From positions 5,867-69,866 of the forward strand of contig CALKUH010000050.1 of the NCBI GenBank assembly GCA_937996795.1: 64,000 nucleotides of DNA, written 5' to 3'. This stretch comes from an uncultured Verrucomicrobiota bacterium. Its GTDB lineage: Bacteria; Verrucomicrobiota; Kiritimatiellia; CAIVKH01. Positions 4,739 to 61,626 of this stretch are shown one piece after another. The translations under genes were made by a program, and so were the position numbers. How positions within the stretch are numbered: the first letter of the stretch is position 1; each line of letters starts with the position of its first letter. Below the pieces are notes generated by a model. It was not told where the DNA came from. It did not search any database and saw nothing but the letters and a program-made list of their open reading frames with translations.

Positions 4739-4841
4739 GATGAGCTCCTGTGGTTCTTTGAACGCGTTGTCGGCAGACCCGCGTTCACCCGGGAAAAAAG
4801 AGTACCCCGGGGGCCGCCCCGGCGTCAACACTCCGAACTTC

Positions 4842-24164: not shown

Positions 24165-24293
24165 TACGCGAGACTTCACTTTATTGGGGTGCGCGTCTGC
24201 GGCGATACCTATGTGCGTAAAACAGAAGGCCGGGAAGACAAATCTGTTATTTCGATTCATAGCCGGGATTTCTATAGATTGATCATCGTTGTC

Positions 24294-24893: not shown

Positions 24894-24906
24894 GTTAGTC
24901 TCCATC

Positions 24907-45177: not shown

Positions 45178-46554
45178 TCACACCCCCCGCGGGGGCGCAA
45201 CCGGAGGGCGTCCGCGGCAACTGCGTATCCAATTCCGGTACCACCGGGCGGAGTCCTTTGGCGTGCGCTGGCCCGTCGCAAAATCGACATGGACCAGCCC
45301 GAAGCGTTCCTTGTAGCCTTCAGCCCACTCGAAATTGTCGAGCAGGGTCCAGTGGAAGTAGCCGCGCACGTCCACACCCGCCCGAATCGCGGCGTGCAGC
45401 GCCCCCAAATAGCGTTCGAGGTAATCGATCCGCGCGGCATCCCGCACGCGGCCGTCCGCGCCGACCCAGTCGGGCAGGCTGATCCCGTTTTCCGTGATAA
45501 CCACCGGCGTTTTGTAGCGCGCGTGGAAGAAGGTCGCCGCCCAATACAGGCTGCGCGGCAAGACCGCCCACCGGCACAGGCTCATCGGGGTCCCCGGCGG
45601 CAACGGCATCTCGCGGGGCCGCCCGCGCGCGTCGCCGCGCACGGGCACGCCGCTGTAGACATTCAGGCCCACGAAATCGAGGGGTTGTGCGATCACCGCC
45701 CCGTCCTCCGCCAGCGCGTCGGCCGCGGCGGCGCCGTAGGCCCGCCGCCCGGTGGCCGGTGGCCGTCCGAGGAAGATCGGGTCGCTCCACCAGACATTGT
45801 TCCATGTGGAGCCCGGCGCGACCGCCGCCATGGCGTTCATCGCGGCGCGCCGGTCCTGCTCGCGCCGCTCGTCGTGCGGCACATGCACCACGGCGGCGTG
45901 GGCGATCCCGATGGACAGGGGGCGTCGGGCGCTGGCGCGCAGCACCTGCACCGCGCGACCGTGCGCCAGCAGCGCATGGTGTGCGGCGCGCAACACCGCG
46001 GGCATCGGCAGGCGGTCGCCGGGGGCGTGGATGCCGGTGCGATGGCCGTAGTCGATAAAGCACTGCGGTTCGTTCAGCGTTATCCAGCGGTCCACACGAT
46101 CCGCCAGCCGGTCCGCCACGCGCGCCGTGTACTCCGCGAACCAGTCTGCGCTGTCGCGGTTTCGCCAGCCTCCACGCCGGTACAGGGCGAGCGGGTAGTC
46201 CCAATGGAACAGCGTGAGCCAGGGTTCTATGTGTGCGCCGAGCAGCTCGTCCACCAGCCGGTCGTAGAAATCCAGGCCCCTGGTATTTTCGCGGCCGACA
46301 CCCTGCGGCATCACGCGCGGCCACGACACCGAAAACCGGTACGCGTGCAACCCCATGCGCCGCATCAGTGCCAGATCCTCGCGCCAGCGCCGCACATGGT
46401 CGCAGGCCCGGTTGCCGGTGTGTCCCCCAAACACCGCGCCGGGCCGGCGGCAAAAGGCATCCCAGACACTGCGGCCCCGTCCGGCGGCATCGCCCTCGAT
46501 CTGGAACGCCGAGGATGCGGCGCCCCAGGCAAACGACGCGGGCCATCCGGTCAC
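45178..46554 (-). CDS. GH1 beta-glucosidase
   Basis: FAWGAASSAFQIEG N-terminal signature, the acid/base TLNEP motif and the nucleophile ITENG motif. The inferred GTG start overlaps the upstream pseudopilin stop (GTGA). The ORF-track start at 46836 is too far upstream. Confidence 0.88.
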   Translation of the reverse strand: MTGWPASFAWGAASSAFQIEGDAAGRGRSVWDAFCRRPGAVFGGHTGNRACDHVRRWREDLALMRRMGLHAYRFSVSWPRVMPQGVGRENTRGLDFYDRLVDELLGAHIEPWLTLFHWDYPLALYRRGGWRNRDSADWFAEYTARVADRLADRVDRWITLNEPQCFIDYGHRTGIHAPGDRLPMPAVLRAAHHALLAHGRAVQVLRASARRPLSIGIAHAAVVHVPHDERREQDRRAAMNAMAAVAPGSTWNNVWWSDPIFLGRPPATGRRAYGAAAADALAEDGAVIAQPLDFVGLNVYSGVPVRGDARGRPREMPLPPGTPMSLCRWAVLPRSLYWAATFFHARYKTPVVITENGISLPDWVGADGRVRDAARIDYLERYLGALHAAIRAGVDVRGYFHWTLLDNFEWAEGYKERFGLVHVDFATGQRTPKDSARWYRNWIRSCRGRPPVAPPRGV

Positions 46555-47150
46555 GGCTGCGTCCCCCACCACCACCACGGCGACTGGCCGTTGGGATCGG
46601 CCCCCATCAGGTCCGCGCGTGTTTTCGCCTGCACATGGCCGTCGAGAAACACGACGTTGTCCGTGTCGCGGTGTCGCGGGCGCACGGCCCAGTCCGTGTC
46701 CAGCGCCACGACGAGCCACGCGGCGCTCGCGAACGCGGACGCATCGCGCCCGGCGACGGCGGTCTGGTTGTCGTTCATCTTGTAGGTCGTGCAGATCTCG
46801 GTTCCATCCACCGTCGCGCAGGCGAACGTGTACCACGCGGGCCAGAGATCATCGCGGTGGAGCGTCGCTGGACAGCGGAAGACGGCGAACTGGTCGCGCA
46901 GGTACTCGCGCAGCATTGAAATCTGGCGGTGCTGCGTGTCCCAGCGCAAATCCGGCATCCGGCCGGCGTGGTCGGCGGCGTAGAAGCGCACCGCGGTTCC
47001 AATCTCGCGCAACTGGGCCGCGCACGCCGTTTGCCAGGCCGATTCCCGCGCGCGCGCCACCATCGAGACGGCCAGCGACGCCAGCACCGCGATCACGGCG
47101 ATCACGGCCAGCAGCTCGACCAGCGAGAATCCGCGCACGCGGCGTTTCAT
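46551..47150 (-). CDS. Prepilin-type N-terminal cleavage/methylation domain protein embedded in the CAZyme operon
   Basis: MKRRVRGFSLVELLAVIAVIAVLASLAVSM, with GGAGG 6 nt upstream. ATGA overlap with the upstream GH94-like gene and GTGA overlap with the downstream GH1 gene. Confidence 0.8.
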   Translation of the reverse strand: MKRRVRGFSLVELLAVIAVIAVLASLAVSMVARARESAWQTACAAQLREIGTAVRFYAADHAGRMPDLRWDTQHRQISMLREYLRDQFAVFRCPATLHRDDLWPAWYTFACATVDGTEICTTYKMNDNQTAVAGRDASAFASAAWLVVALDTDWAVRPRHRDTDNVVFLDGHVQAKTRADLMGADPNGQSPWWWWGTQP

Positions 47151-50100
47151 CGCGCGCCTCCTGGCGGCAAGGCCAGGTCGAGCACGTTGCCCTCCTCTCG
47201 CAACCGGCTTCGGAATTCGGCGTATGCCACGCTTCCGCCGCCCGCGCGGTAGGGATTTCCCGCCAGCGGCAGCATCGCCAGCGGTTCGCCATTCAGCCGC
47301 GCGCAAAGCCCGCCCGCGCCAGGCTGCACGCGGTGCAGCACCAGCAGCGGACGCCCGAATAGTTCATGCCGCAAGGCAACGCCGTCCCACGCCGCCGGCA
47401 GGACGGGATCAAGTTCCAGCCGGTCGAAGCGGCGGCGCCACCCAAACAACCGCGCCAGCACCGCGTGGACAAAAATGCCCGGGCCGCTGGAATAGACGCG
47501 CCAGCCGCCGCGCACCGGCACGCCGCCCGCGCGCAATTCCTCCCACCGGGCCGCCGCCTCGGCGCGGGTGTCGAATCGCGCATCGCTGCTGCTGAAATAG
47601 GCGTTGGCCTGGCGGCATTCCGCGTTTGCCACGGTCTCCTGCAGCGCGACCGGGTTCACGGCCAGCAGGCCGCGCACCAGCTCGTCCGCATCGCCGACCC
47701 GCGCCATCGCCTCGCAATAGCGCAGGTGCGCGTGCACATACTGCAACCCCACCTCGCGCCCGAAGAAGGCCGCCGTTTCGGCGCGCTGGAAATGCGTGCG
47801 CCGCCCGCCGCGGTACGGCACCGGCGTGTCCATTAAATGCACGCCGTCCGGCATCCAGAGCCATTCGCGCAGCAGGGCCAGGTGGGCGCGGGCCTCCGTC
47901 GGCGTGAAGAGTCCGCTGAGGATGCCGCGGTTGATCGACAGCAGGCGCAGGCGCGGCCCGGAGCTGTGGTCGGACGGATGCAGCAGCAGGCGCGCGCGGC
48001 CGTCCGCGCCGAACAGGGCGAACCCCGCGATGACGCCGTCGCGGATCAGATGGCGGTGCACGTCGGTGTGAATGCGTTCGGCCAGATCCGCGCAACGGCC
48101 CGCGAGGCCGTGCCATCCGTACCGGCGCGCGCAGGCGGCGAACCGCGTGACGGTTTCAAACACGAGCATCACCGTCCACGCGCTCGTCATCCGCTCGCGC
48201 ATCTCCGCGCGCAGCGGCTGCAAGGTGTCGTCCCAGTCGCCGTCGCGGTAGCGCAGCAGCGAGGTGCCCTCGATGCAGTCGTGTTCCAGGATGCCGAGCT
48301 GGCGCTCGACGTGATCACGCAGCGGCGTGGCGGGCCGCGGCCGATGGTCCGCGCCCATCCAGCCGACCGGCCGGTCCAGCAGGCCGGGATCGTCCGTCGC
48401 CTCCAGGACATCGCACAGCGCCTTCAGCGGCCACACCACAATGTCGCCGTGGCAGTGGCGCTGACGAATCGCGCCGTACGGCTCGAACATGAACCACTGC
48501 GGCCACAGCCCGGTGTCCGCGTCCTGCTGGGCATACACGCGGTCCAGCAGGACCGGCAGATACGCCGTCCGCCCCGTCGCGATCAGCCACTCCAGCGGGC
48601 CCTGGCATACGTCGCGCGTGCCCCATGCGCCGCCATTAAACTGTTCCAGGCCATGCGGCGTCGCGAGGTGCACGAGCGCATTGTGCGAGAACCAGGGCAG
48701 GATCGTGTCGAGCCGCTCCGCCTCCGCCACGCCCATCACGCGGACGCCACCCGTCAGGGCGGACCGGTACGGTTGCGTGCCGTCCAGCCGGTCCTCGCGC
48801 GACGGCGCAGGGCGGTCATCCGCCGCCCGGATGCGCAGGGTCGCCGACGCCGTCGTCGGCCAGGTCCATTCGAGCAGGGGCGTATCCGCATCGTGGTCCC
48901 ACACGTCCGCCGGACCGGCCGCGGCGGCGCCCGCATCGCCTTCCACGATGTAGGACGGATGCGCGGTGGACGCCTCCTCGCCCGTCACAAGCGGGCAGCA
49001 CAACACTCCGCATCCCCGCGCCATCGCGCGATACGGGCGCGCCCCGTCCACATCCAGCTCCAGCGTCGCCCGCATCGAAAGCGGCGGACCTTCGAGCACA
49101 CGCGCGGTGAAGGTTAATTCGCGCGAGGCGGCGGCGGACGACCGCACTTCCAGTGTGATTCCGCCGAACCGGTACACCCACTCCGCCGCCCGCGCGTGCA
49201 TGCCGAAGGCGGAGGGAATGCCGAGCTGCCGCCATGCCCCATCCCAGTCCACGAAGAGGCGCAGGCCGGACGATCGCTGGAGGTTCAACGGGTGCCGCAC
49301 CACCGACAGCAGGCGATGCAGGTTCGGATTGCCGCGCGTCACATGGCTGTGGAACACACCCATCGCGTACACCGTGCTGCACAGCGGTTCCGCCTCAGGA
49401 CCCGGCGGATCGCCGCACACGAGGATGTGGCCGTGCGGACGCTCGACCCGCCGCTCTTTGGCGCCAAGCACCACATGCGCGCCGGATTCGGTGAAAAACG
49501 AAAGCAGCGCCCCGTCCCTCCGCTCCTCATGACGCCAGGGACCGCCCCAGCGCGCGCGCAGTGCCGCCTCGTCCAGCGGCTCGCCGGCCAGCAGCGGACC
49601 CTCAAACCGGCCCGCCTCCGGCGGCGGCCCTTCCACGCACGGACGGCCGGGCCACGCAGTGGACGCCGCCCACTGCGCCGCCGCAGCCACGCGCCGCGCG
49701 TCGCTGCCGCCGGACGCGGACGGATGGTGGGGCACAAATTCGGCGAAAAAACGCGCCTCGCCGTGATCGCCCGCCGCCAGCCGCTGCGCCATCGACACCA
49801 GCGCTCCGCAGCCCATTTCATATTGCATCACGCGCGACGGCAGGTGCGCCGCGCGCCACGCCTCCGGTTCGCCGGTGGCGCGGAACCCGAGGCCCAGCAC
49901 CTGTAGTCCGTCGGTTGCATACGACGCCGCGCCGGGCTGGCAGCCCTGCAGCATCCACGGGAACCGCTCTCCGGCCTGCGGCTGGTTCTGCCGTGACAAC
50001 AGCACCGGGCCGGCGGCGGTCTCCAGGACCGTGTGATCCACATAGTGCGCCGCATACGCCTCGTTGATCCGCAGCGTGGCGGGCGGCGCCAGTCCGAGAT

Positions 50101-50530
50101 CCTGCGCATACAAGACGTCCCACTCCACCGCCTCCGCGCCCCGGTTCGCCACGCGGACCAGCCACGCCCAGCGCGCGGCCGCGTCGTCCAACACCAGCGC
50201 GACTTCGACGGCCAGCGCGCCGTCGTGCACGCGCCACCGCACCGCACCGTCCGCCGGCGCCGCCGCCGCGCGCGCGCGCAATCCCAGCAGTGGAACCACG
50301 CGCACAACCTTCGCGCCTGAACGGACCCGCAATACGAGCTGGAACATCCCGGCTTCGTGCGGCGACACGCGCAATGCATTGATCCGGAGGTCGCCGCAGG
50401 CCACGTCGTGAACAGCCGCCCCGCGCCCGCGCACACACAGGCCGTTCCCGCTGACCACCGTCCACGCGGGCGGCCCCCGGGGCGCCTCCAGGATCACCCG
50501 CTCGTCAAGAACCTGTGTATCCATCTTCAT
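47147..50530 (-). CDS. Large (alpha/alpha)6-barrel glycoside hydrolase or phosphorylase-like protein (GH94/GH36-superfamily-like; 1,2-beta-oligoglucan-phosphorylase-sized)
   Basis: About 1127 aa. A central WFSHNALVHLATPHGLEQFNGGAWGTRDVCQG block resembles the GGxWGxRD catalytic region of GH94-type phosphorylases. Family assignment is by motif and size only. Confidence 0.5.
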   Translation of the reverse strand: MKMDTQVLDERVILEAPRGPPAWTVVSGNGLCVRGRGAAVHDVACGDLRINALRVSPHEAGMFQLVLRVRSGAKVVRVVPLLGLRARAAAAPADGAVRWRVHDGALAVEVALVLDDAAARWAWLVRVANRGAEAVEWDVLYAQDLGLAPPATLRINEAYAAHYVDHTVLETAAGPVLLSRQNQPQAGERFPWMLQGCQPGAASYATDGLQVLGLGFRATGEPEAWRAAHLPSRVMQYEMGCGALVSMAQRLAAGDHGEARFFAEFVPHHPSASGGSDARRVAAAAQWAASTAWPGRPCVEGPPPEAGRFEGPLLAGEPLDEAALRARWGGPWRHEERRDGALLSFFTESGAHVVLGAKERRVERPHGHILVCGDPPGPEAEPLCSTVYAMGVFHSHVTRGNPNLHRLLSVVRHPLNLQRSSGLRLFVDWDGAWRQLGIPSAFGMHARAAEWVYRFGGITLEVRSSAAASRELTFTARVLEGPPLSMRATLELDVDGARPYRAMARGCGVLCCPLVTGEEASTAHPSYIVEGDAGAAAAGPADVWDHDADTPLLEWTWPTTASATLRIRAADDRPAPSREDRLDGTQPYRSALTGGVRVMGVAEAERLDTILPWFSHNALVHLATPHGLEQFNGGAWGTRDVCQGPLEWLIATGRTAYLPVLLDRVYAQQDADTGLWPQWFMFEPYGAIRQRHCHGDIVVWPLKALCDVLEATDDPGLLDRPVGWMGADHRPRPATPLRDHVERQLGILEHDCIEGTSLLRYRDGDWDDTLQPLRAEMRERMTSAWTVMLVFETVTRFAACARRYGWHGLAGRCADLAERIHTDVHRHLIRDGVIAGFALFGADGRARLLLHPSDHSSGPRLRLLSINRGILSGLFTPTEARAHLALLREWLWMPDGVHLMDTPVPYRGGRRTHFQRAETAAFFGREVGLQYVHAHLRYCEAMARVGDADELVRGLLAVNPVALQETVANAECRQANAYFSSSDARFDTRAEAAARWEELRAGGVPVRGGWRVYSSGPGIFVHAVLARLFGWRRRFDRLELDPVLPAAWDGVALRHELFGRPLLVLHRVQPGAGGLCARLNGEPLAMLPLAGNPYRAGGGSVAYAEFRSRLREEGNVLDLALPPGGAR

Positions 50531-53500
50531 GGGGGCTCCGTGCCGTGACTCCATTCGTAATACCCCGCCGGGTCGCGGGCGGACGCCGCCACCGCACGCC
50601 CGTCGACCTCCATCCTCGCAATCGTCGTCTCCGCCGGCAGATGGAGCCGGATGCGGCCGGTGAGCCGCGGCGGCGACTTCACCGACACCCCGTATCCTTC
50701 CGCGGAGCGCTCAATCCGCAGGTCCAGCGGCCCGAATCGCGTCGGCAGGGCCTCGAGCGAGAAGCCGCCCCCGTTCCACCACGCGGCGGGCGCGCCTTCC
50801 AGCAGCCAGAGGTCGTCCCCTGCTTCGCGCACGAGCATTGTGCGCACGGACACGACGTAATCCGCGCCGACCCACGTGTGCGGCATGTCCCCGATGTAGG
50901 TGCCGCGCCGGGGATCGCTCGTGACCACCTCGGCGTAGTGACGCCAACCCGGCGGGCGCCGGTCGCGAAAGAGCCGGTCGTGCAGTGCGCGCGCGTCGTC
51001 GATCCGCCCCATCACCTGCAGCGCCGCGATGTTTCGCGCCTCGTAGGGTGTGTAGAGCCACGCGGCATCCGCCGCATCGCGCCGCGCGACGTGCGCGAGA
51101 TAATCATCGTAGGTCTTCGCGATCGCCTCCGGCGTGAACACGTCGTCCGCCACCTCGCACGGAAAGAAGGCGATCGACACCGAGGTCGCGTCCGGGTCGC
51201 CGCGCTCCGCGGAACCGGGAATGAAATCAATGCCGCACTCGCTCATCGTAAGGGCCAGCGACGCGCGAACCGACGCGGCGAGCAGCGCATACTGTTCGTC
51301 GGCCCACGCGGCGGTTTCCTCCTCGCCCATCCGCCGCGCCAGTTCGGCCCCGTCGCGCCATCCGCGCAGCGCCCAGTAGTCGTCCCAGTACGAATGGTGC
51401 GGCGTGTTGTAGCCCTCGTGACTGATCGACGCGGGCAGCAGGCCGCGGTAACGTGCGCGGCGCGGATCATCCGCGGCGTAGTCGTCCTCCAGCGTCTGTT
51501 CGCGCAGCGCCTGCATGCAGCGCATCGCGCGGAGCACCGCCGGATAGTGGCGGCGCAGGAAGGCGTCGTTGCCGGTGAAGCGCGCGGTCTCCGCGACGAT
51601 GAAGATGAACTGCCCCTGCGCGTCATATTCGAGATTCGAGCCGAACCCGTCATGCACCGTGCCGTCATTGTCGAGAATCGGCGGGACCAGGCCATCCTCG
51701 CGGACCGCGCGGGCATACCAGTCGACGTAGTCCACCGCCTCCTCCACAAGGCCCAGCCGCAACAGCGCGGACGCAGTCAGCGACCCGTCGCGAATCCAAA
51801 CCCTGTTGTAGTTGCGTGAACCCGGCTGCAGCGCGACGCCGTCGCGGTTGACCAGGATGTACCCGGCCTGCGCATACAGCGTGTCCGTGACTTCACGGTC
51901 GCCGAGCGCGATTCCGGCGCGCCGCACGCGCCCCCGCCAAACATCTTCCGCGGCCTCGCGCCGCGCGGCAAATTCAGCCGAATCCACCGCCGCCGTGCCG
52001 CCGACCGTCAGCACGACGGACGTGGATGCCCCGGGCGAGAGATCAACCGTGTGCCGCGATGCAACGGATATCATGCCCGACGGATCGTCAACACCCGCGA
52101 CGCCCGACCAGCGGCCGCGCGCCGCCGCGTGCACCACATCGCCTCCGGCATGGGGCGCGGCCAGGGCTGCATCCGCCGGAGGCGTTAAGGTGTACCCCCA
52201 TCCATCCACCTCGACGCGCGTTGCATCGGCTGCCGGCCGGATGAGGACGCGATGAATTGGCGACACGCCGCCATGCTGCCATTTCGGGTTGATCTGTATC
52301 GGACGCAGCAGCAGCAGAAAATCGCCGGCCAGCGGCGCATCACCCGTTGCGGTGACGGTGTAGCGCACCAGCGTGACGTCGCGGTCGTCCAGCCGGTCCG
52401 GCATCGCGTCGATCCGGACCCGCGCGCCGGCGGCCTGCCATTCGACGGACGGCAGAGGCAGCTGTCCCTCCGCGAGCGACTGCGTGATGGCGGTGGCATC
52501 AAGCGGCGTGACCAGCCGCCCGCCGATGCGCAGGTACGGCATGAGCGCGGGACCGCGCGCGAACACCTCCAGGTTTCCATACTCATCCAGCAGGGCCTCG
52601 TGTGTCGAATCCGGCGGGCCGACGACCGTCCAATACACCTGGCGCCGGTGCAACGACTCCGGATACCAGCCGGGCGGCGCCTTCGCCGCGGCGCGTTCGT
52701 AGAGCGCGAGAGACGTGCGTTCCTCGCCGGGTCCGCGCGGGGAGAGGGTGTTGATGAGCAGATCCGCCGGGTCGTCCGCGCGCATCGCCAGGCGCGCCCG
52801 TCGCACGGTTCGCAGGTCGTGCATCAGGAGGTCGAAGTCGCCTTCGCTCTCGGGCAGGACGTCGGCTGTCCTCCACGCGCCGGATGCGTCCTCAAGTTCC
52901 CAGCGCAGATCGCGCCGCGCGGCGCGGGCCCATTCGATGCGCAGGCCGCTGATCGACTCCGGCGACGGCCATTCCAGCTCAAGCACCGCTTCCGGGGTGT
53001 CGGGATGCCAGCGCGCGGCGACCTCGCCCGCCGGGAACCTGGTTTCGCCGGCCACGTGGGGCGCGGCGTCCGGCCCGAGCACATCGAGGTCCCAGATCGA
53101 TGCGCCCCATCCGGTGGCGCGCCGTTCAATCACCACGCGGACCTGTCGTGCGGTCACGGTCGGGAAATAGATGCGGTCCAGATGCCCGTCCCCGGTGTCC
53201 ACCCGCTGCGCAACCTGCCATGCGCTTCCATCCATCGACGTTTCCACGCGATACGCGGAGGCGAACGCGGTCTCCCACGCGATGCGCAGCCCGGCCACCG
53301 GAGCCGCGCGGCCGAGGTCCACCGCGAGGTGGTGTCCGTCCTCAAACGGGCTGCTCCAGCGCGTGTCCTCGCGCCCGTCAATCGCCGCCGCCGCCGGAAA
53401 TTCGCCGTCCTGTCCGCCCGACGCCGACGCGCTCCACTGCGCACGCGGCGGCAACGCCATGGCAACCGCCGGCCATGCCGCGACCGCCACCGCGAGGAAT

Positions 53501-53550
53501 CGCAGCGCCCGCGCGCCCGGGCGCGACTTTGTGAATCCGTCCTTCTTCAT
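50527..53550 (-). CDS. Secreted protein: N-terminal F5/8 type C (discoidin) domain(s) plus a GH15-like (alpha/alpha)6 glycoside hydrolase domain
   Basis: Signal peptide (MKKDGFTKSRPGARALRFLAVAVAAWPAVA). AIDGREDTRWSS...LAVDLG...GLRIAWE and GLRIEWARAA are discoidin-like. NYNRVWIRDGSLTASALLRLG matches the GH15 W-x-R-D region. Confidence 0.55.
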   Translation of the reverse strand: MKKDGFTKSRPGARALRFLAVAVAAWPAVAMALPPRAQWSASASGGQDGEFPAAAAIDGREDTRWSSPFEDGHHLAVDLGRAAPVAGLRIAWETAFASAYRVETSMDGSAWQVAQRVDTGDGHLDRIYFPTVTARQVRVVIERRATGWGASIWDLDVLGPDAAPHVAGETRFPAGEVAARWHPDTPEAVLELEWPSPESISGLRIEWARAARRDLRWELEDASGAWRTADVLPESEGDFDLLMHDLRTVRRARLAMRADDPADLLINTLSPRGPGEERTSLALYERAAAKAPPGWYPESLHRRQVYWTVVGPPDSTHEALLDEYGNLEVFARGPALMPYLRIGGRLVTPLDATAITQSLAEGQLPLPSVEWQAAGARVRIDAMPDRLDDRDVTLVRYTVTATGDAPLAGDFLLLLRPIQINPKWQHGGVSPIHRVLIRPAADATRVEVDGWGYTLTPPADAALAAPHAGGDVVHAAARGRWSGVAGVDDPSGMISVASRHTVDLSPGASTSVVLTVGGTAAVDSAEFAARREAAEDVWRGRVRRAGIALGDREVTDTLYAQAGYILVNRDGVALQPGSRNYNRVWIRDGSLTASALLRLGLVEEAVDYVDWYARAVREDGLVPPILDNDGTVHDGFGSNLEYDAQGQFIFIVAETARFTGNDAFLRRHYPAVLRAMRCMQALREQTLEDDYAADDPRRARYRGLLPASISHEGYNTPHHSYWDDYWALRGWRDGAELARRMGEEETAAWADEQYALLAASVRASLALTMSECGIDFIPGSAERGDPDATSVSIAFFPCEVADDVFTPEAIAKTYDDYLAHVARRDAADAAWLYTPYEARNIAALQVMGRIDDARALHDRLFRDRRPPGWRHYAEVVTSDPRRGTYIGDMPHTWVGADYVVSVRTMLVREAGDDLWLLEGAPAAWWNGGGFSLEALPTRFGPLDLRIERSAEGYGVSVKSPPRLTGRIRLHLPAETTIARMEVDGRAVAASARDPAGYYEWSHGTEPP

Positions 53551-53557
53551 TCCGCAA

Positions 53558-54418
53558 TCATCCCTTCACCGCGCCGGAGGTGAGCCCGGCAATAAATTCG
53601 CGCTGCAACCCGATGAACAGCGCCATTACAGGCAGAATGGAGACGAGCGTGCCGGCCATCAGCAGGCCGTAGTCGGTGCCGTAGATGCCCTTCACCTGCG
53701 CAAGGGCGACGGCGAGCGGGAAGCGCTCGGGCGATTGCAGGATGATTTGCGGGCCGATGAAATTGTTCCAGGCGCCGATGAACGTGATGAGCAGGAACGC
53801 GCCGAGCATCGGCCGGCACAGCGGAAGCACGATTTCAAAAAACAGCCGCACCTCGCCGCACCCGTCCATGCGCGCGGCCTCAAGCAGGTCGGGCGGCACG
53901 GCGTTGAGCATCGCCTGCCGGAACAGGTACACGCCGAACGCGGGGGCCAGGCCGGGCAGGATCAGCCCCGCGAAGGTGTCGAGCAGGCCGAGGCGATGGA
54001 CAAGAGCGTAGCCCGGCGCCAGCAGGAGCGGCGCGGGCACGATCAACGCGCCGAGCACCAGCGCCGTCACCGCGGCGCGGCCGCGGAACGCGAACCGCGC
54101 GAGCGCGTAGCCGCCCATCGCCGCGCACAGCGTCGCGAGGACGCCGGACACGGACGCATAGAACACGGAGTTCAGCAGGCTCGCGCCGAACCGCAGGCTC
54201 GGGTCGCTGAAGAGGCGCGCCAGGTGGTCGAGGGTCAGGCCGCCCCAGTCCACGCCCAGCGCCCCCGCGCCGCGCGGCAGGAAATGCGCGGAGAAGAAGG
54301 CGTCGCGTGTTTTGAACGCGCCGCAGACGAGGTACGCAAACGGCGCGAGCGTCAGCAGCGCCGCGGCGCCGAGCAGGCCGTGTGCCAGCGCGGAGGACAT
54401 GCGCGCGCGCAGGTTCAT
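53558..54418 (-). CDS. Carbohydrate ABC transporter permease (MalG/UgpE-like)
   Basis: 6-TM protein with the EAA-type loop (EAARMDGCGEVRLFFEIVLPLCRP). Start MNLRARM, with ATGA overlap with the upstream permease. The ORF-track start at 54988 is too far upstream. Confidence 0.85.
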   Translation of the reverse strand: MNLRARMSSALAHGLLGAAALLTLAPFAYLVCGAFKTRDAFFSAHFLPRGAGALGVDWGGLTLDHLARLFSDPSLRFGASLLNSVFYASVSGVLATLCAAMGGYALARFAFRGRAAVTALVLGALIVPAPLLLAPGYALVHRLGLLDTFAGLILPGLAPAFGVYLFRQAMLNAVPPDLLEAARMDGCGEVRLFFEIVLPLCRPMLGAFLLITFIGAWNNFIGPQIILQSPERFPLAVALAQVKGIYGTDYGLLMAGTLVSILPVMALFIGLQREFIAGLTSGAVKG

Positions 54419-55296
54419 GACCGCGCCTCCCGCTGGAGCGCGCGCTGCAGCACGGCGATGCCCATCAGGAACAGCGCGAGCACCCAGCCGATCGCCGCCG
54501 CGTAGCCGAGGTCGCCGGTCTCGAATCCGTTCTGGTAGAGGTACATCACGATCGTAAGGCCGCGGCTCTCCGGGCCGGCCCCGCCGAGCAGGATGTAGGG
54601 CAGCTCGAAGAGCTGCATGCTGCCGATCACCGACAGCAGCGTCACGAAACCAGCCACCGGCGCGATGGCGGGCCAGGTCACATGGCGGAAAACGCTGCAC
54701 GGCCCCGCGCCGTCCACTCGCGCGGCCTCGACCAGGGACTTGTCGACGCCCTGCAGCGCGGCGAGGAAATAGATCATGTTGAACCCGGCGTACATCCACA
54801 GCGAGGCGAGGATCAGCGCGGGCATGATGTGGCGCTGCAGCCACGGGAACTCCGCGGGAAAGCCCGGCCATACGCGCGCGAGCGCGGCGTTTAGCAAGCC
54901 CTCGCGCTCGTGCAGGATCAGCGCGAACAGCGCGGCGACGAAGACGAGGCCGACGAGCGACGGCGAGAAAAACGCGAGCCGGAACCACGCGCGCCCGCGC
55001 AGGCCCGGCTGGTTCAGCAACAGTGCCAGCCCCAGCGCAACCGGCAACTGCACGAACAGCGAACCCGCGGTGTACGCGAATGTGTTCCGCGCAGCCGTCC
55101 AGAACAGCGGGTCGCGGAACAGGTCGGCGAAATTTTTAAGGCCGACCCGCACGGCCGTGTCGGGCCCGTATGTCTGCTGCAGTGCCAGTCCCACCGAGGA
55201 CACCAGCGGGAAAACCATAAACACACCGAACAGCACGACGAACGGCGCGAGAAAAATCCACGGAGCCCAAACCGGATGGAGGCGCGCGGAGGACAT
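54415..55296 (-). CDS. Carbohydrate ABC transporter permease (MalF/UgpA-like)
   Basis: EAA loop (EAARVDGAGPCSVFRHVTWPAIAP) and 6 TM helices. Confidence 0.85.
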   Translation of the reverse strand: MSSARLHPVWAPWIFLAPFVVLFGVFMVFPLVSSVGLALQQTYGPDTAVRVGLKNFADLFRDPLFWTAARNTFAYTAGSLFVQLPVALGLALLLNQPGLRGRAWFRLAFFSPSLVGLVFVAALFALILHEREGLLNAALARVWPGFPAEFPWLQRHIMPALILASLWMYAGFNMIYFLAALQGVDKSLVEAARVDGAGPCSVFRHVTWPAIAPVAGFVTLLSVIGSMQLFELPYILLGGAGPESRGLTIVMYLYQNGFETGDLGYAAAIGWVLALFLMGIAVLQRALQREARS

Positions 55297-55298
55297 GA

Positions 55299-56696
55299 TC
55301 AGGGCGTCTCCCCGGCGGACTCAAAAAATACGTTCCGCGCCATGTGTTGCCGCACGCGCTGCTCGGCTTGCGCGAGGTGCGCTCGCGCGAGCGGCTCCAA
55401 CTGCTCCACGCGGTGCAACGCATGGCGCTCGGCCTCGGCTTTCAGTCCCAGGGCCGCGTCGCCAAGCGCCGCGAGCGCAAGCCGCTGGTAGGGCGACGAG
55501 GTGCGCGCGGGCACGTGGGGCGCCTGCTCAAGATACAGACGGCCCGCCGGCTGGCCGGAGAAGAACGGGTTCGGCTCGTCGAACACCGGATCGTCCCAAA
55601 ACGTGCGGACCGCGGTGACGATGCCGGCCTCGCGGTACAGGCGGCGTGCGATGTCGCGGTTCAGATAGAGTTGCTGCGCGAGCGACCACGCGCGCTCGAC
55701 GTCCCGCGCCGCGCGCGGCAGGCCGAGCATCGTGCCGCCCATTACGCTCGTGCGCCGCCCGCCGGGCGTCCAGGCCGGCAGCGACATCACCTTGACCCTG
55801 CCCGCGAGGCCGGGCAGGTCGAGCTGCCACGCGCCGGCGAGCCAGTCCGGCAGCAGGCTGCACAACACAACGCCGTCGAGCCGCAGCCGGTTGCCGGCGG
55901 CGTCGAATTCCGGCGCGTTGATCGCGATTCGGTCCGGACCGGTGGTCCAGGATGCGATTGTTGCAAGGACATGCGCGTTTACGTCCGTCGACATCGCCAG
56001 CTGTTCGCGCGCATCGAAGAGGCCGCCGCCCGCCTGCAGCAGCAACACCTCGAGCAGTTCCGGGTTCGTTTCCCAGAGGTTCAAGAGGTAGCGGTCCGGC
56101 CGCCCGTCGCCGTCGGCATCCGCCATCAGCGGTTTCAGCACATGCACGAATTGGTCCCACGTCTGGACCGATGACAGGTCAATGCCCGCCGCCTCGACAA
56201 CATCCGCACGGTAGCCGAGCAGCACCGGGTGCACATCGTGCGGCAGGCCGTAGATGCGGCCGCGCGTGGTCCACGGCGTCAGCGACGGCGGATTGAATTG
56301 CTCTAACAAGCCGGTTTCGCGCAGCCGGTCGGTGAGGTCGAGGAACCCGATCTGCTCGACGGGTCCGCGGAACACCTGCGCCGCAATGCCGCCGTGCACC
56401 TCGACCACGTCGGGCAGCGGCGTGCCCGACAGGAAGCCGGACAGCAGGCGGCGCTGCAGCGCATCCGTCGTCAGCAGCAGCGACTCCGCGCGCGGCCGGT
56501 CCGGCGCCGCATTCCATTCCTCCAGCACCGGCGCATACATCTCCTGGTGCGGCCGCGCGAAGGTCCACAGGAGCAGGTCGGGGCGCGGGGCGTCGGGCCG
56601 CAGCGCGACGGCCACGGACGACAGCACGGCCAGCGTGCAGACGATCCAGACCGCGGGCGTCAGGGCCGGTTCGCGGTCTGTGCGGCGGGTGTTCAT
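55299..56696 (-). CDS. Extracellular solute-binding protein (family 1) of a sugar ABC transporter
   Basis: Start MNTRRTDREPALTPAVWIVCTLAVLSSVAVA, about 465 aa, directly upstream of the two permeases. The exact start coordinate is uncertain by 1-2 nt in my reading. Confidence 0.7.
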   Translation of the reverse strand: MNTRRTDREPALTPAVWIVCTLAVLSSVAVALRPDAPRPDLLLWTFARPHQEMYAPVLEEWNAAPDRPRAESLLLTTDALQRRLLSGFLSGTPLPDVVEVHGGIAAQVFRGPVEQIGFLDLTDRLRETGLLEQFNPPSLTPWTTRGRIYGLPHDVHPVLLGYRADVVEAAGIDLSSVQTWDQFVHVLKPLMADADGDGRPDRYLLNLWETNPELLEVLLLQAGGGLFDAREQLAMSTDVNAHVLATIASWTTGPDRIAINAPEFDAAGNRLRLDGVVLCSLLPDWLAGAWQLDLPGLAGRVKVMSLPAWTPGGRRTSVMGGTMLGLPRAARDVERAWSLAQQLYLNRDIARRLYREAGIVTAVRTFWDDPVFDEPNPFFSGQPAGRLYLEQAPHVPARTSSPYQRLALAALGDAALGLKAEAERHALHRVEQLEPLARAHLAQAEQRVRQHMARNVFFESAGETP

Positions 56697-59263
56697 CGGG
56701 CGGCCTTGTCGCGCGCCTGCATGTTTTCGCGCTCGGCGACCACCCGCGCCACGCGGGCCCGTTCGCGCTCGCGCGTGTCCTCCGCCGGCAGCGCCAGCCG
56801 GTACGACGCGTTGTTCGCGTCGTGGGCCCGTTCGCGGTACAGCGCGATTTCGCGGTAGGCCTTCTGCGCGATCGGGTGTTCGCGCACCCACGCGCGCAGG
56901 TCGCGGTCATGCAGCGCATTGAACAGGCTCAGGAACAGCATCGCCTGGTCGAGCAGCAGGTAGTCGGGGCTGACCGCGCCGCTGACGAGGTCCACCGAAT
57001 CGCGGAAACCGAATTGCGGGTCGCGCGCGCCAAGCCGTTCGAGCGCGCGCAGGTTGGCGACCACCTCGGCGGGAAACGCCTCAATGGCAAGGACCGACGC
57101 GTGCGGTGTGACGATCTCGTCGCGCAGATGGCCCCACCCGAGATACACGCCGTCCGGCGCGCGGCACGCGGACCAGCCCCACGCGGCGAACGCGTTTTCA
57201 CGCGCGTGCCGGATCTGCGCGTAGGCGAAGTTCTCCGCCGACCGGCCCATCAGCGTCCCGCGCTCGTCGAGCCACAGCCCGTTGATGAACTGCATGAACA
57301 AGCCTCCGCCCTGCCAGCCGGGCGCGAGGTATTCGGCGTGGTGCCGCGTCTCCGTCGCCCGGGAGAGCCGGTCCCACATCGAGGCGGGCACGCGGCCCGA
57401 GCCGGCGGCGGCGAACTGCGCGAGCCGCGCGTCGGTCCCGAGCGTGTGCAGCAGCCAGTCGCGGTTGAACGACTCCGCCGCCACATCGTAGCCGCCGACG
57501 AGCAACCCGCGCTCCGCGTCGTAAAACGCGTCCCACGCCATCGCGTCGAGCAGCCGGTCGCAGCGCGCGCGCAGATTTGGCAGGCGGACGCCCGCCGCCA
57601 TCAACCCGCCGGCCAGGTTGCCGCTGTCGAGCAGCGAGATCCAGGTGTCGTTGGTGGACGGCGCGCCGTCCTCGACATCGTGCCAGCACTGGACGAAGCC
57701 GTGTCGCGTGTTCCACCCCTCCATTGCGTCGAGCACGCGCGTGACCGCCGCTTCGGCCTCCCTGTCGGTGAGGTAGCCCCATTCCGCCGCCGCCGCGCAC
57801 GCGCTCAGGTAGAGCCCGATGTTGCTGACCGAACTCGGTCCGCGCACCTGCTGGTCGTCGGACGGCAGGCCGGTGTCCGGGTGGACCATCGACGCGATGG
57901 AGCGCCAGGTGTCGCGCGCGACGCCTTCGAGATAGCGCCGGTCCTCGTCCGGCAATCCGGGCGCGTTCGGGATGAACCCCGCGCGGGCCAGGGCGTTCGA
58001 GATCGGTGCATAGCTCATAAAACGTTCCCACACAAAACCCGACCGCGCGTTCTCGATCATCAACAGGGTGATTCCGACATCAATCCCGATGTGTGCGCCG
58101 GCGGACCAGCTGTCGTGCGGATCGAAGGCGGTCACGAACCCGTAGCGGCCCCAGGCCGCATCGGCGTGCGCCGCGCGGATGCGCCCCACCGTGGGACGGC
58201 AGAGGTCCGGCGCAAACGGCAGCGAGCCGGCGGCGGCGTAGGGCACGATGCTGCCGTCCGGCGGCGGGTCGCCGCTCGCGGGCGGTCCGCCCCACCCCGC
58301 GTACCCGCCGCGCCAGTCGGATGCGCTCAGCCCCCACACCTGCTCGTTCCACGCCGGGAACTGCGGCTGCAGGTCCACCGACCACAGGTGTTGCGCGCGC
58401 GTCGCCAGCGCGGAGTTCAGGAAGTAGTCGGCGTAGGCGTCGCGCGTTCCGCGAAAATCGATCCACGCATGCGAGAACTGGTGGGTGAACAGCGGCGGGC
58501 ACTGGATGTACGTGTACGGGCCGTAGGTGATGACCGGCTCGCGCTTCCACGCGTGCCAGGCGTCGTCGGCGAGCGGGTGCTCCGGCGCGGCGAGGCCGAG
58601 CAGGACGAGGATCATGAGTTCGTTGTACCATCCCCACCGCGCGGGCAGGAAACCGCCCTCCGGCGACCAGCCCATGCTCAGCGTGCCGTCATCGTGCAGC
58701 ATCCACGGCCACTCGACGCGCGCGATGATCCGGTCCGCCCAGGCCGCCAGCGGCGTGTCCGGCCAGTGCTGGCGGCAGGTGATCACGCCGGCGAGCAGCA
58801 GCGCGGTGTCGATCGTGGACAGTTCGGAGTCCCATCGCCGCTCGCCGGTGCCGGGCTCGACAAAGTGGTAAAAAAAACCGCGCTCGTGCGGCATCTGCTC
58901 CGCCAGGAAGCGCATCGCCGTTTCCGCTCGCCGGTACGCCTCGCCGGGAGGCAGCCAGCCGCGCGCATCGGCGATACAGAGCGCCGTGAGGCCGAACCCG
59001 GTGGCCGCCGAGCTCGCCACCTCGCCCGGCTTCCGTCCCGAGGCGTCGACGCGATCCCACACGAGGCCGGTCTCCGGATGCATCCAATCGTTGAAATAGG
59101 CGAAGCTATGCCGCGCCAGCTCCTCCACGGGATCCTCTTCCGCGGGTGCGACGTGTTCGTGCTCGGCGGGCGCAGCCGGTTCTGGCGGCCGCACCGCACA
59201 GCCCGTCCAGCATGCGGCCACCATTGCGCCCCAGAGGCCCCGTATCACCATGCGCCCCGTCAC
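56693..59263 (-). CDS. Lipoprotein with two tandem glucoamylase-like/DUF3131-type domains (GH144-like?)
   Basis: MTGRMVIRGLWGAMVAACWTGC lipobox. Two homologous halves (HPETGLVWDRVDASG ... and HPDTGLPSDDQQVRG ...). The family call rests on weak motif resemblance only. Confidence 0.45.
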   Translation of the reverse strand: MTGRMVIRGLWGAMVAACWTGCAVRPPEPAAPAEHEHVAPAEEDPVEELARHSFAYFNDWMHPETGLVWDRVDASGRKPGEVASSAATGFGLTALCIADARGWLPPGEAYRRAETAMRFLAEQMPHERGFFYHFVEPGTGERRWDSELSTIDTALLLAGVITCRQHWPDTPLAAWADRIIARVEWPWMLHDDGTLSMGWSPEGGFLPARWGWYNELMILVLLGLAAPEHPLADDAWHAWKREPVITYGPYTYIQCPPLFTHQFSHAWIDFRGTRDAYADYFLNSALATRAQHLWSVDLQPQFPAWNEQVWGLSASDWRGGYAGWGGPPASGDPPPDGSIVPYAAAGSLPFAPDLCRPTVGRIRAAHADAAWGRYGFVTAFDPHDSWSAGAHIGIDVGITLLMIENARSGFVWERFMSYAPISNALARAGFIPNAPGLPDEDRRYLEGVARDTWRSIASMVHPDTGLPSDDQQVRGPSSVSNIGLYLSACAAAAEWGYLTDREAEAAVTRVLDAMEGWNTRHGFVQCWHDVEDGAPSTNDTWISLLDSGNLAGGLMAAGVRLPNLRARCDRLLDAMAWDAFYDAERGLLVGGYDVAAESFNRDWLLHTLGTDARLAQFAAAGSGRVPASMWDRLSRATETRHHAEYLAPGWQGGGLFMQFINGLWLDERGTLMGRSAENFAYAQIRHARENAFAAWGWSACRAPDGVYLGWGHLRDEIVTPHASVLAIEAFPAEVVANLRALERLGARDPQFGFRDSVDLVSGAVSPDYLLLDQAMLFLSLFNALHDRDLRAWVREHPIAQKAYREIALYRERAHDANNASYRLALPAEDTRERERARVARVVAERENMQARDKAAR

Positions 59264-59862
59264 GATTCGCGCCTTCGGGAAAGGCGCCGTGTGGCCAGGA
59301 GCCCGCCGAGGATGAGCAACCCGGCCGAACCCGGCTCAGGCACGACGGAGAAGTCGTCAAAGATGTGGAAATCCGTGTTCACTGCCGGCGTCGCGCTCAT
59401 AAATACGATGCCGCGCACGCTCGCCGTCACGGCGTTGACCGGCGCGAGGGCGTCCTCAATCGATATCCACGTGAACGGTTGGTCCGCCGTCACATGTGTG
59501 GACTGGAGCTGATTGATGATGCCGCCCGATGAATCGAGCCACTGCACCTCAAGCCACGATTCGGAGCTCTCCACATTCACCGCGCGGATCTGGACGCCGA
59601 AGTCGTAGGTCGCTCCGCCCACGACCGGCAGCTCCTGGAAGATCCCCCGGAAGCTGTCCGCGTCGGTGTCCTGCACATCGTTGACCACGCCGAACAGGCC
59701 TGAGTTCGCGTCGCCTCCGCCGGACGTGCGCCAGCCCTGGCCGAACGTGCTCCACCCCGTGAAGTCGCCGGTTTCGAACCCGGCATTGATCAAATCGGCA
59801 TGTCCCGACAGCGTCAGGACGCAGGCCGCCGCACAGGCGGCCATCCCGGATTTTACGTTCAT
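59260..59862 (-). CDS. PEP-CTERM sorting-domain protein with an N-terminal CBM-like beta-sandwich domain
   Basis: Signal peptide. NAGFETGDFTGWSTFGQGW resembles CBM4/9-type modules. C-terminal VPEPGSAGLLILGGLLATRRLSRRR is a PEP-CTERM signal. Confidence 0.75.
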   Translation of the reverse strand: MNVKSGMAACAAACVLTLSGHADLINAGFETGDFTGWSTFGQGWRTSGGGDANSGLFGVVNDVQDTDADSFRGIFQELPVVGGATYDFGVQIRAVNVESSESWLEVQWLDSSGGIINQLQSTHVTADQPFTWISIEDALAPVNAVTASVRGIVFMSATPAVNTDFHIFDDFSVVPEPGSAGLLILGGLLATRRLSRRRES

Positions 59863-59879: not shown

Positions 59880-60509
59880 TTAGAAACCGCCGCGGAACCG
59901 ACGCCGGCGCCACCAGGCGATGGCTGCGCCCGCGCCGCCCAACAGCGTCAGCGTGCCGGGTTCGGGCACAACCGGCCCGCCGCTGAAATCAAAGCTGTCG
60001 AAGATGCTGAAGTCCGGCGCTCCGGAGGTGTTGTGCATCTGCACGATGCCGCGCACGCTGACGGTGACGGCGTTGATGGGCGCCACCATGTTGGTGAGGG
60101 ACAGGTAGGTGAACGGTTGGTCGGCCGTTGTGTGCACGGACTGCAACTGGCTGATGAACCCGCCGACGTTGTCGAACCACTGGATCTCCAGCCACGACTC
60201 CGTGGTGTCCATCGTTACCGTGCGGAGCCACACCCCCGCGCTGTAGGATGCGCCGCCTACGATTGCGATATTCTGGAAGACGCCCCGGAATTGATCCACA
60301 TCGCCGCCGAGCATGTCGTTCACTGCGCCATACGAGCCGGCCTGCGCGTCGGCACCGACGCCGATGCGCCAGCTCTGGCCGAACGTGCTCCACCCCGTGA
60401 AGTCGCCCGTTTCGAATCCTGGATTCACCAGTGTTGCTGCGCCGGTCGCCTGCCCCCACAGGAAGCCCGCCGCCGCCACCGCCCTGATCCGCCGCCCCCA
60501 TGCATGCAT
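59880..60509 (-). CDS. PEP-CTERM sorting-domain protein, paralogue of the previous gene
   Basis: NPGFETGDFTGWSTFGQSW. C-terminal VPEPGTLTLLGGAGAAIAWWRRRR. Many identical positions shared with the 59260-59862 gene. Confidence 0.75.
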   Translation of the reverse strand: MHAWGRRIRAVAAAGFLWGQATGAATLVNPGFETGDFTGWSTFGQSWRIGVGADAQAGSYGAVNDMLGGDVDQFRGVFQNIAIVGGASYSAGVWLRTVTMDTTESWLEIQWFDNVGGFISQLQSVHTTADQPFTYLSLTNMVAPINAVTVSVRGIVQMHNTSGAPDFSIFDSFDFSGGPVVPEPGTLTLLGGAGAAIAWWRRRRFRGGF

Positions 60510-61533: not shown

Positions 61534-61626
61534 ATCGTCAGCGCTTACGGTACGCCGCGTGCTTACGGCTGTCAACGCTGCTTTTTTAGGAAAGCGCGGG
61601 GCGTTCTGCCGGCCCGCGCGGATTTG

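Follow-up and report, generated by a model that had tools for sequence, protein, structure and literature searches.

A probable β-1,2-glucan catabolic operon of a Kiritimatiellia-like bacterium and its widespread, uncharacterized GH15-like protein

Many bacteria depend on β-1,2-glucans as factors of symbiosis, virulence, and osmoregulation. To our knowledge, enzymes that degrade them have been found only since 2014. Among the described systems, lin1839-lin1841 of Listeria innocua encode the 1,2-β-oligoglucan phosphorylase (SOGP) Lin1839, the glycoside hydrolase family 3 (GH3) β-glucosidase Lin1840, and the sophoro-oligosaccharide (Sopn)-binding protein Lin1841 (PMC12369401). Gram-negative clusters with a β-1,2-glucanase (SGL) of family GH144 include IALB_1177-1187 of Ignavibacterium album (PMC8861115) and XCC2207/XCC2208 of Xanthomonas, and Streptomyces griseus has the cluster SGR_2426 (GH1)/SGR_2427 (GH193) (PMC12369401). 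The locus described herein lies on contig CALKUH010000050.1 of an uncultured Verrucomicrobiota bacterium, of which 64,000 nucleotides (positions 5,867 to 69,866; the window, with a G+C content of ~69%) were analyzed. On the minus strand, twelve consecutive open reading frames (ORFs) run from 61575 to 43693 with a largest gap of 63 nt. Very probably, they form an inducible catabolic operon for β-1,2-glucan (sophoro-oligosaccharides) in a Kiritimatiellia-like diderm, with about 11 genes, or 12 if gnd is counted. Eight of them, G1 to G8, had been noticed in a sequence-only reading, which suggested a phosphorolytic pathway for β-1,2-glucan. This suggestion is supported by the predicted identity of G6 as an SOGP, the GH144 domain of G1, and the GH1 enzyme G8.

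G6 (47147-50530, minus strand) is a 1127-amino-acid protein without a signal peptide. Formerly only described as GH94-like, it matches the SOGP-specific Pfam domains PF21958 (SOGP_N, 2.6e-58) and PF21250 (SOGP_2nd, 4.2e-37), and scores 25.6 bits against PF21270, slightly below the cut-off of 27. In the PDB, only 5H3Z, the GH94-type SOGP of Lachnoclostridium phytofermentans (LpSOGP), is related to it by sequence, with an E-value of 2e-167 across residues 49-1114, the alignment spanning residues 49-470 and 603-1114. Both proteins have four domains, one of them being the additional N-terminal β-sandwich (Ndom1) that is specific to SOGP. Residues were compared by means of the list in PMC5309861 and the alignment to 5H3Z, using a chain numbering offset of +1 that was checked on five residues. 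In LpSOGP, D760 is the catalytic Asp; R630, D631, W758, and E917 line the −1 subsite; Y922, H924, S1005, and S1006 form the phosphate site; and Q621, Y1004, R907, R916, N138, and Y141 form the +1/+2 subsites and set the β-1,2 specificity (PMC5309861). The equivalents in G6 are D768 with R639, D640, W766, and E926; Y931, H933, S1014, and S1015; and, for sophorose binding, Q630, Y1013, R916, R925, N156, and Y159. Hence, 15 of the 15 listed ligand contacts are identical (one catalytic, four other −1, four phosphate, and six +1/+2), and the sole deviating contact is the water-mediated G623 of LpSOGP, which is an Asn in G6. The prediction of G6 as a 1,2-β-oligoglucan phosphorylase is supported by the family domains, the full-length homology, and these residues.

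The same residues bear on the alternative that the locus targets a different β-glucan such as laminarin, cellodextrin, or mixed-linkage glucan, with the GH94-like protein being a cellodextrin or laminaribiose phosphorylase. GH94 does include β-1,4 and β-1,3 phosphorylases, and its cellobiose phosphorylases appear among the Foldseek neighbors of G5; moreover, GH1 β-glucosidases are often broad in specificity, and the nearest solved relatives of the binding protein G2 bind various oligosaccharides. However, the extra N-terminal domain matched by PF21958 is restricted to SOGP, no PDB entry other than LpSOGP is matched by G6, the six +1/+2 residues are kept, and G1 belongs to GH144, a family known only for β-1,2-glucan-specific enzymes. 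A different target is, therefore, very unlikely.

G1 (56693-59263, minus strand) is an 856-amino-acid lipoprotein with the lipobox VAAC and Cys18; an alternative start is possible at the ATG at 59251. The earlier description as a DUF3131-like lipoprotein holds for the lipobox and one of its domains, and a GH144 domain (PF10091, 3e-72) is found besides at residues 46-432. This domain is homologous to XcSGL from Xanthomonas (8XUL, 1.7e-56) and CpSGL from Chitinophaga (5GZH, 8.6e-36). The general acid of these enzymes is a Glu (E211 in CpSGL, E239 in XcSGL), E142 of CpSGL marks the proposed base position, and F286 and Y367 define the clan. In G1, the general acid is E215 in YNELM, and the acidic residue D152 in STIDTALL stands at the position of CpSGL E142. 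The clan-defining Phe is F259 in PPLFTHQ, and Y321 in GGYAGW aligns with the Tyr of GYAAH in CpSGL, the phmmer alignment to XcSGL being shifted in that loop. Family profile, SGL homology, and the acid, base, Phe, and Tyr positions all place residues 46-432 in GH144.

Residues ~438-800 of G1 (56693-57958) form a second domain of the DUF3131 type (PF11329), putatively also of the SGL clan. Its best solved relatives are 8WY1, the GH189 cyclization domain of a cyclic glucan synthase (4e-20), and EeSGL1 (8XUJ, GH192; 4e-9), and it is also homologous by sequence to 4GL3. If this domain were a GH189-type transglycosylase (cyclase) and the SOGP were synthetic, the locus could remodel or synthesize the periplasmic β-1,2-glucans of its own host, in line with the reversibility of phosphorylases and with the predicted extracytoplasmic location of G1 and G5. 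The catalytic positions, compared over a set of 120 subfamily members (P0169-P0288) with a TiCGS numbering offset of +1003 that was checked on H1536/H1537, speak against this. The acid/base position (TiCGS E1356) is D611 in G1 and an Asp in 119 of the 120 members, so that the acidic general-acid position of the SGL clan (GH-S) carries Asp instead of Glu; D611, D546, and D772 are conserved in the subfamily. The column of the GH189 nucleophile (TiCGS E1442) is unconserved, with E689 in G1 and K, R, or A in most relatives, and the His-His pair (H1536/H1537) is replaced by L771-D772, as in hydrolytic SGLs. The combination of nucleophile, acid/base, and His-His pair that marks a GH189 catalyst is, hence, not present, and by its residues the domain is a homolog of GH189 but not a GH189-type catalyst. 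In view of the unconserved nucleophile position and of Leu-Asp in place of His-His, the latter a trait shared with hydrolytic glucanases, the second domain is read as hydrolase-type rather than as a cyclase. In addition, the locus has a catabolic make-up: a LacI repressor, an ABC importer, and a β-glucosidase are present, whereas a glycosyltransferase domain and an exporter are absent from it. Synthesis or remodeling of own glucans is, thus, very unlikely.

An inactive C-terminal domain that has lost its acid to the Met of GGGLFMQ was also considered and rejected, as the acid/base position aligns with D611 and the Met corresponds to E1400. The subfamily of this domain consists mostly of stand-alone "glucoamylase family" proteins from Elusimicrobiota, Lentisphaerae, Kiritimatiellia, and Chlamydiota, which strictly conserve GGGLFMQ where cyclic glucan synthases carry MFEY.

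The solute-binding protein (SBP) and the two permeases named in the sequence-only reading are recognized by Pfam as parts of an ATP-binding cassette (ABC) sugar importer. G2 (55299-56696, minus strand) is a family-1 extracellular SBP (PF01547, SBP_bac_1; 6e-9), whose best PDB relatives are oligosaccharide binders at ~1e-9. G3 (54415-55296, minus strand) is a MalF-like permease (PF00528, 1e-15) and G4 (53558-54418, minus strand) a MalG-like permease (PF00528, 2e-14). G8 (45178-46554, minus strand) is a cytoplasmic GH1 β-glucosidase of 458 amino acids (PF00232, 2.9e-132). As already proposed, it belongs to this family: it reaches 500.1 bits in the NCBIfam β-glucosidase equivalog TIGR03356 (cut-off 478.5), and both catalytic glutamate motifs, TLNEP and ITENG, are present in its translation.

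Taken together, these proteins suggest the following mechanism. A LacI-type repressor would bind an operator that overlaps its own promoter. Upon induction, two PEP-CTERM proteins and the lipoprotein G1 would work outside the cytoplasmic membrane, where glucan would be captured at the surface by G1, possibly aided by the PEP-CTERM proteins. Judged by its catalytic residues, the GH144 domain of G1 would cut linear or cyclic β-1,2-glucan endolytically into short sophoro-oligosaccharides, and the second SGL-clan domain probably contributes a second glucanase-type activity. G5 would process glucan or oligosaccharides in the periplasm, most likely as an inverting glycosidase for structures that GH144 leaves unfinished. 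The oligosaccharides would then be taken up by G2-G4, presumably powered by a MalK/MsiK-type ATPase shared with other importers, as none is encoded in the operon. Once in the cytoplasm, oligosaccharides with a degree of polymerization of at least 3 would be phosphorolyzed by G6 from their non-reducing ends, yielding glucose 1-phosphate and sophorose. Sophorose itself is no substrate of SOGPs and would be hydrolyzed to glucose by G8.

Several points weigh against a catabolic β-1,2-glucan operon. Family membership, residue conservation, gene order, overlaps, and synteny are direct observations, from which we infer all activities, localization, regulation, and the single-transcript status. Phosphorylases run both ways, and the direction of flux is, therefore, taken from the context. 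G2 is not a detectable homolog of the characterized sophoro-oligosaccharide binder Lin1841 (5YSB; E = 0.47, 12.4 bits), and other family-1 oligosaccharide binders outscore Lin1841 against it. By sequence, G8 is a generic GH1 enzyme, so that a preference for β-1,2 linkages is an assumption. G5 and G7 are without an assigned reaction. A consensus scan yielded no promoters and 11 terminator-like sites compared with 9.8 expected, which is at chance level and uninformative.

G5 (50527-53550, minus strand) is a secreted protein of 1007 amino acids from an uncharacterized GH15-like family. A signal peptide is followed by a discoidin/CBM32 domain (residues 40-160), a discoidin-like domain (185-272), a β-sandwich (305-516), an (α/α)6 barrel (524-906), and a C-terminal β-sandwich (907-1001). 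The AlphaFold model is confident, with a predicted local distance difference test (pLDDT) score of 87 and a predicted template modeling (pTM) score of 0.84, and contains the complete barrel. Pfam recognizes only the N-terminal discoidin domain. For the remaining ~850 residues, single-sequence and profile searches gave no NCBIfam or PDB match, and a profile search of the PDB with the catalytic part returned discoidin/CBM32 matches only. Among the 50 Foldseek matches listed, a GH94 cellobiose phosphorylase ranks first by E-value, and glucoamylase 1LF6 has the best target-normalized TM-score.

The resemblance to GH15 comprises fold and motif. Residues ~520-906 of G5, with the preceding β-sandwich, combine an (α/α)6 barrel, an N-terminal β-sandwich, and the sequence Y581-x3-W585-x-R587-D588, which has the same spacing as the substrate-binding motif Y-x3-W-x-R-D of GH15, residues Y48/W52/R54/D55 there. 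Against PF00723 (GH15), however, G5 reaches 15.0 bits (cut-off 22; E = 0.012) over residues 580-618 only, and is not placed in the family; 11 of 18 relatives of G5 likewise give sub-threshold GH15 matches at one motif. An hhalign comparison of the G5 family with an approximate sequence of Aspergillus niger glucoamylase gave no meaningful alignment (probability 0.2). Hence, the earlier wording "discoidin plus GH15-like" is apt for fold and motif but does not extend to membership in GH15. Conservation was assessed over 167 aligned sequences (median identity 31%). It reaches at least 98% for each of E641, D643, H711, E712, W722-D723, D785, D787, E837, R839, E874, D888, and H891. W722-D723-D724 and E837 (or E874), at ~98-99%, are the candidate catalytic residues, to be compared with the W-E-E acid and the base Glu of GH15. 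N-termini resembling signal peptides were found in 110 of 159 complete family members by a crude rule, several of the rejected ones also resembling signal peptides. The pattern describes what appears, by sequence and model, to be an active extracytoplasmic glycosidase that resembles GH15 without being a member.

The family is large. An exhaustive library contains 17,897 representatives at E ≤ 0.001 and 2215 at E ≤ 1e-30, the best 150 matches are all full length, and at least 600 species genomes carry a member. In the literature searched, which did not cover subscription journals, no characterized member was found, papers on GH144/SOGP clusters do not mention the G5 protein, and nothing was found on the neighbors of XCC2207. 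A view of G5 as a very rare protein, based on 18 relatives from a word-indexed search, was rejected after the exhaustive search; the discoidin domain had swamped the index and thereby hidden the family. More generally, a common N-terminal domain of this kind can mask a large family in a word-indexed protein search.

Genomic company was counted within 10 kb in the 80 best loci from other species, which span Gemmatimonadota, Ignavibacteriota, Proteobacteria, Fibrobacterota, Planctomycetota, Bacteroidota, and others. A homolog of GH144 or SOGP lies near the G5-family gene in 51 of these loci, and in 37 of the 48 that offer at least 7 kb on both sides. G3 homologs adjoin the gene in 39/80 loci, the second ABC permease (G4 homolog) is directly upstream in 30/80, and a LacI homolog is nearby in 18/80. 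In Ideonella alba, the order is LacI, TonB-dependent receptor (TBDR), GH144, SBP, two permeases, G5 homolog, and SOGP; in a Gemmatimonadaceae genome, this core is accompanied by GH1 and a MalK-type ATPase. A metagenome-assembled genome of Ignavibacterium album, the species with a published β-1,2-glucan cluster (PMC8861115), shows a TBDR and GH144 with the G5 homolog directly downstream (L053:9362-12523).

These counts and residues also bear on the alternative that G5 has no catalytic function and serves in glycan binding or as a structural protein, or that it acts on an unrelated glycan and is adjacent by chance. Its catalytic part passes no family threshold, it carries two discoidin binding modules, no GH144 or SOGP was found nearby in 29 of the 80 loci, and some closer homologs stand alone. 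Yet an acidic and aromatic set that includes Y-x3-W-x-R-D and W-D-D is at least 93% conserved over the 167 sequences, the synteny with GH144 and ABC permeases recurs across many phyla, and the confident model has a complete barrel, which makes a bystander role unlikely. With somewhat less than an even chance, G5 founds a new GH family, consisting of secreted GH15-like enzymes with discoidin modules that act on β-1,2-glucan-derived substrates and form a core yet overlooked part of β-1,2-glucan utilization loci across many phyla. In a sharper version, G5 would cleave structures that resist GH144 and β-glucosidase together. One such target, though a rather improbable one, is the α-1,6 linkage or the limit glucopentaose of α-1,6-cyclized β-1,2-glucans, from which CpSGL and a β-glucosidase reportedly leave a non-degradable glucopentaose (2026 preprint, bioRxiv 10.1101/2025.04.21.649730). 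G5 may speculatively be a candidate for this step because its nearest folds are α-1,6-acting GH15 enzymes; branch points of periplasmic glucans are another possible target.

Returning to the operon as a whole, the order and the coordinates of the eight minus-strand ORFs in the sequence-only reading both match the sequence, and its account of their junctions does so in part. Every junction had been described as a 4-nt overlap. The six quoted overlaps are present, but five of the seven internal junctions overlap rather than all of them, and for the "seven consecutive junctions" six sites had been listed. ATGA joins G1/G2 (56693-56696), G3/G4 (54415-54418), G5/G6 (50527-50530), and G6/G7 (47147-47150), and GTGA joins G7/G8 (46551-46554). 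At 59260-59263, the quoted GTGA exists but connects G1 to an upstream PEP-CTERM gene that was missing from the list. The 2-nt gap between SBP and permease (G2/G3) is confirmed, whereas the 7-nt gap of G4/G5 had been omitted.

How much these overlaps mean depends on the composition of the window, in which third codon positions hold 5.7% A and 41% G and TGA provides 18 of 35 stops. From the codon-position and stop composition, the chance per junction is ~3% for ATGA and ~21% for GTGA. The four in-frame ATGA starts far exceed chance and are real features, while the two GTGA overlaps are weak evidence and hinge on the choice of the start codon, since an independent gene call by the Joint Genome Institute (JGI) starts G1 13 codons downstream and the GH1 gene G8 8 codons upstream. 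Start re-annotation, named beforehand as a way in which the overlaps could vanish, concerns these two GTGA sites; the four ATGA overlaps are kept in relatives. The relatives compared are the loci L002 and L003, whose G5 orthologs are 82% and 67% identical, respectively. The overlaps of G1/G2, G3/G4, G5/G6, and G6/G7 recur as ATGA or GTGA in these relatives, and in the more distant L003 a stop codon closes the alternative upstream ATG of G6. The order LacI, two PEP-CTERM genes, G1, SBP, two permeases, G5, and SOGP is common to both; the contig of L002 ends within the SOGP gene, and L003 also retains the pilin gene. Translational coupling would be consistent with the short overlaps and gaps and with the Shine-Dalgarno-like motifs located within the upstream partner of a junction. 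The 4-nt overlaps as such are a habit of the genome and not a peculiarity of the operon, as another ATGA stop/start overlap joins two ORFs of ~1000 amino acids at 33789-33792 (minus strand); they are ordinary for a genome of ~69% G+C.

The extent of the operon had to be revised: the eight genes are present, but transcription probably starts three genes ahead of G1, at a gene for a LacI-family transcriptional regulator (60538-61533, minus strand; NCBIfam LacI-family models, RbsR/CcpA/PurR-like, 9e-52). Directly in front of its ATG at 61533 lies a candidate sigma-70 promoter (61536-61575 including the operator, minus strand) with TTGACA at 61575-61570, a 17-nt spacer, and TACCGT at 61552-61547. 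It is overlapped by a near-palindromic candidate LacI-type operator, CGTAAGCGCTGACG (61536-61549, minus strand); no other site in the window gives a match to itself on the two strands. L002 and L003 keep TTGACA, the -10 element, the operator, and the ATG, as well as the LacI gene at the same position, the flanks having diverged. From its family and position, the LacI-family protein is a probable repressor of the unit, which would be autoregulated and start at ~61540.

Between the LacI gene and G1, two PEP-CTERM proteins are encoded. Protein a (59880-60509, minus strand; 209 amino acids) consists of a signal peptide, a domain of ~150 amino acids, and a C-terminal PEP-CTERM sorting signal (PF07589, 7e-6), with a sub-threshold CBM_4_9 match (E = 0.1). 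Protein b (59260-59862, minus strand; 200 amino acids), whose gene is preceded by an AAGGAG Shine-Dalgarno sequence, is its paralog with 55% identity and also matches CBM_4_9 below threshold (E = 0.16). An AlphaFold model of protein b from a two-sequence alignment was unusable (pLDDT 36). Protein a is possibly a surface glycan-binding protein, as far as its sequence indicates.

A GC-rich hairpin with a T run (61594-61619) stands between the LacI promoter element and the next upstream gene, behind which it is located. This gene (61627-63975, minus strand, cut by the window end) encodes a repetitive protein of 782 amino acids, with about four copies of a ~150-amino-acid module that alternate with thrombospondin-type-3-like DxDxDG calcium-binding repeats. 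Its NCBIfam matches are MtsD and the pilus-like family Amuc_1099.

Toward the other end of the operon, G7 (46551-47150, minus strand) is a prepilin-type protein of 199 amino acids. Its earlier designation as a pseudopilin agrees with PF07963 (5e-7) and TIGR02532 (27.3 bits, cut-off 16.3); a DUF1559 match is weak, and the C-terminal H-X9-DG motif reads HRDTDNVVFLDG. An ortholog occupies the corresponding place in L003, whose contig, unlike that of L002, reaches this far. Another prepilin-type N-terminus, KKGFTLIELLVV, occurs far from the operon in an ORF of ~210 amino acids at ~4080-4740 (minus strand), so that pseudopilin-like proteins recur in this genome. The last ORF of the series, gnd (43693-45114, minus strand), encodes 6-phosphogluconate dehydrogenase (Pfam NAD_binding_2 and 6PGD in the contig gene table), and members of its cluster at ≥90% identity from Kiritimatiellia metagenome-assembled genomes are named phosphogluconate dehydrogenase, an affiliation with which the PEP-CTERM and H-X9-DG proteins agree. 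Its membership in the operon is uncertain, as it is separated from G8 by the gap of 63 nt that contains its own AAGGAG Shine-Dalgarno sequence. Downstream of gnd, the contig gene table lists a MATE/MurJ-like transporter (42254-43603) and a GH39 glycosidase (~40599-42190) on the minus strand.

Elsewhere in the window, the G+C content drops from ~68% to 52-60% at 22971-28187 (minus strand), where four consecutive ORFs of 429, 263, 462, and 631 amino acids resemble secreted proteins. Rfam and tRNA scans of the window were empty; hence, this stretch is not an rRNA operon, and it is probably a horizontally acquired island.

Loci of this type have been described from Listeria, Ignavibacterium, Bacteroides, and Streptomyces; the present variant has a two-domain glucanase, a different envelope toolkit, and a member of a widespread uncharacterized enzyme family. 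With lin1839-lin1841 of Listeria, it shares the predicted cytoplasmic logic of ABC import of sophoro-oligosaccharides, a monomeric four-domain GH94 SOGP, and a β-glucosidase that finishes sophorose. However, the β-glucosidase belongs to GH3 there and to GH1 here, and the SBP of the Kiritimatiellia-like locus has no detectable homology to Lin1841. The GH144 fusion, G5, the PEP-CTERM proteins, and the pseudopilin are additional, and the organism is a diderm from the PVC (Planctomycetes-Verrucomicrobia-Chlamydiae) group.

The Gram-negative SGL clusters likewise combine an extracytoplasmic GH144 enzyme, an ABC importer, and a GH94-type phosphorylase in one locus, and the core is also shared with the widespread form composed of LacI, TBDR, GH144, SBP, two permeases, a G5-family gene, and GH1 or SOGP. 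In contrast to these clusters, the present locus lacks a TonB-dependent receptor and encodes PEP-CTERM proteins and a pseudopilin instead, its GH144 domain is joined to a putative further SGL-clan domain, and it contains no GH35 transglucosylase. The cluster SGR_2426/SGR_2427 of S. griseus resembles it by having a β-1,2-glucan-associated GH1 (not GH3) exo-enzyme, with the specificity residues W291 and Q229 in SGR_2426, beside an SGL-clan glucanase and an ABC transporter, but it is Gram-positive and was described without an SOGP or a G5-like gene. With this locus, the catabolic scheme described so far reaches the Kiritimatiellia/PVC lineage, in combination with a different set of outer-envelope components.

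GH15 enzymes act on α-glucosides. Those with an N-terminal β-sandwich, namely glucoamylase (1LF6), glucodextranase (1ULV), an enzyme of the isomaltose glucohydrolase type (5Z3A), and dextran dextrinase (9JU0), are 12-18% identical to G5, which differs from them by two extra discoidin domains and by its place in β-1,2-glucan loci. The G5 family comprises over 2000 sequence clusters, occurs in no fewer than 600 species genomes, and travels with GH144 and a sugar importer across phyla; it offers a clonable candidate for a missing step of β-1,2-glucan degradation and for a new CAZy family.

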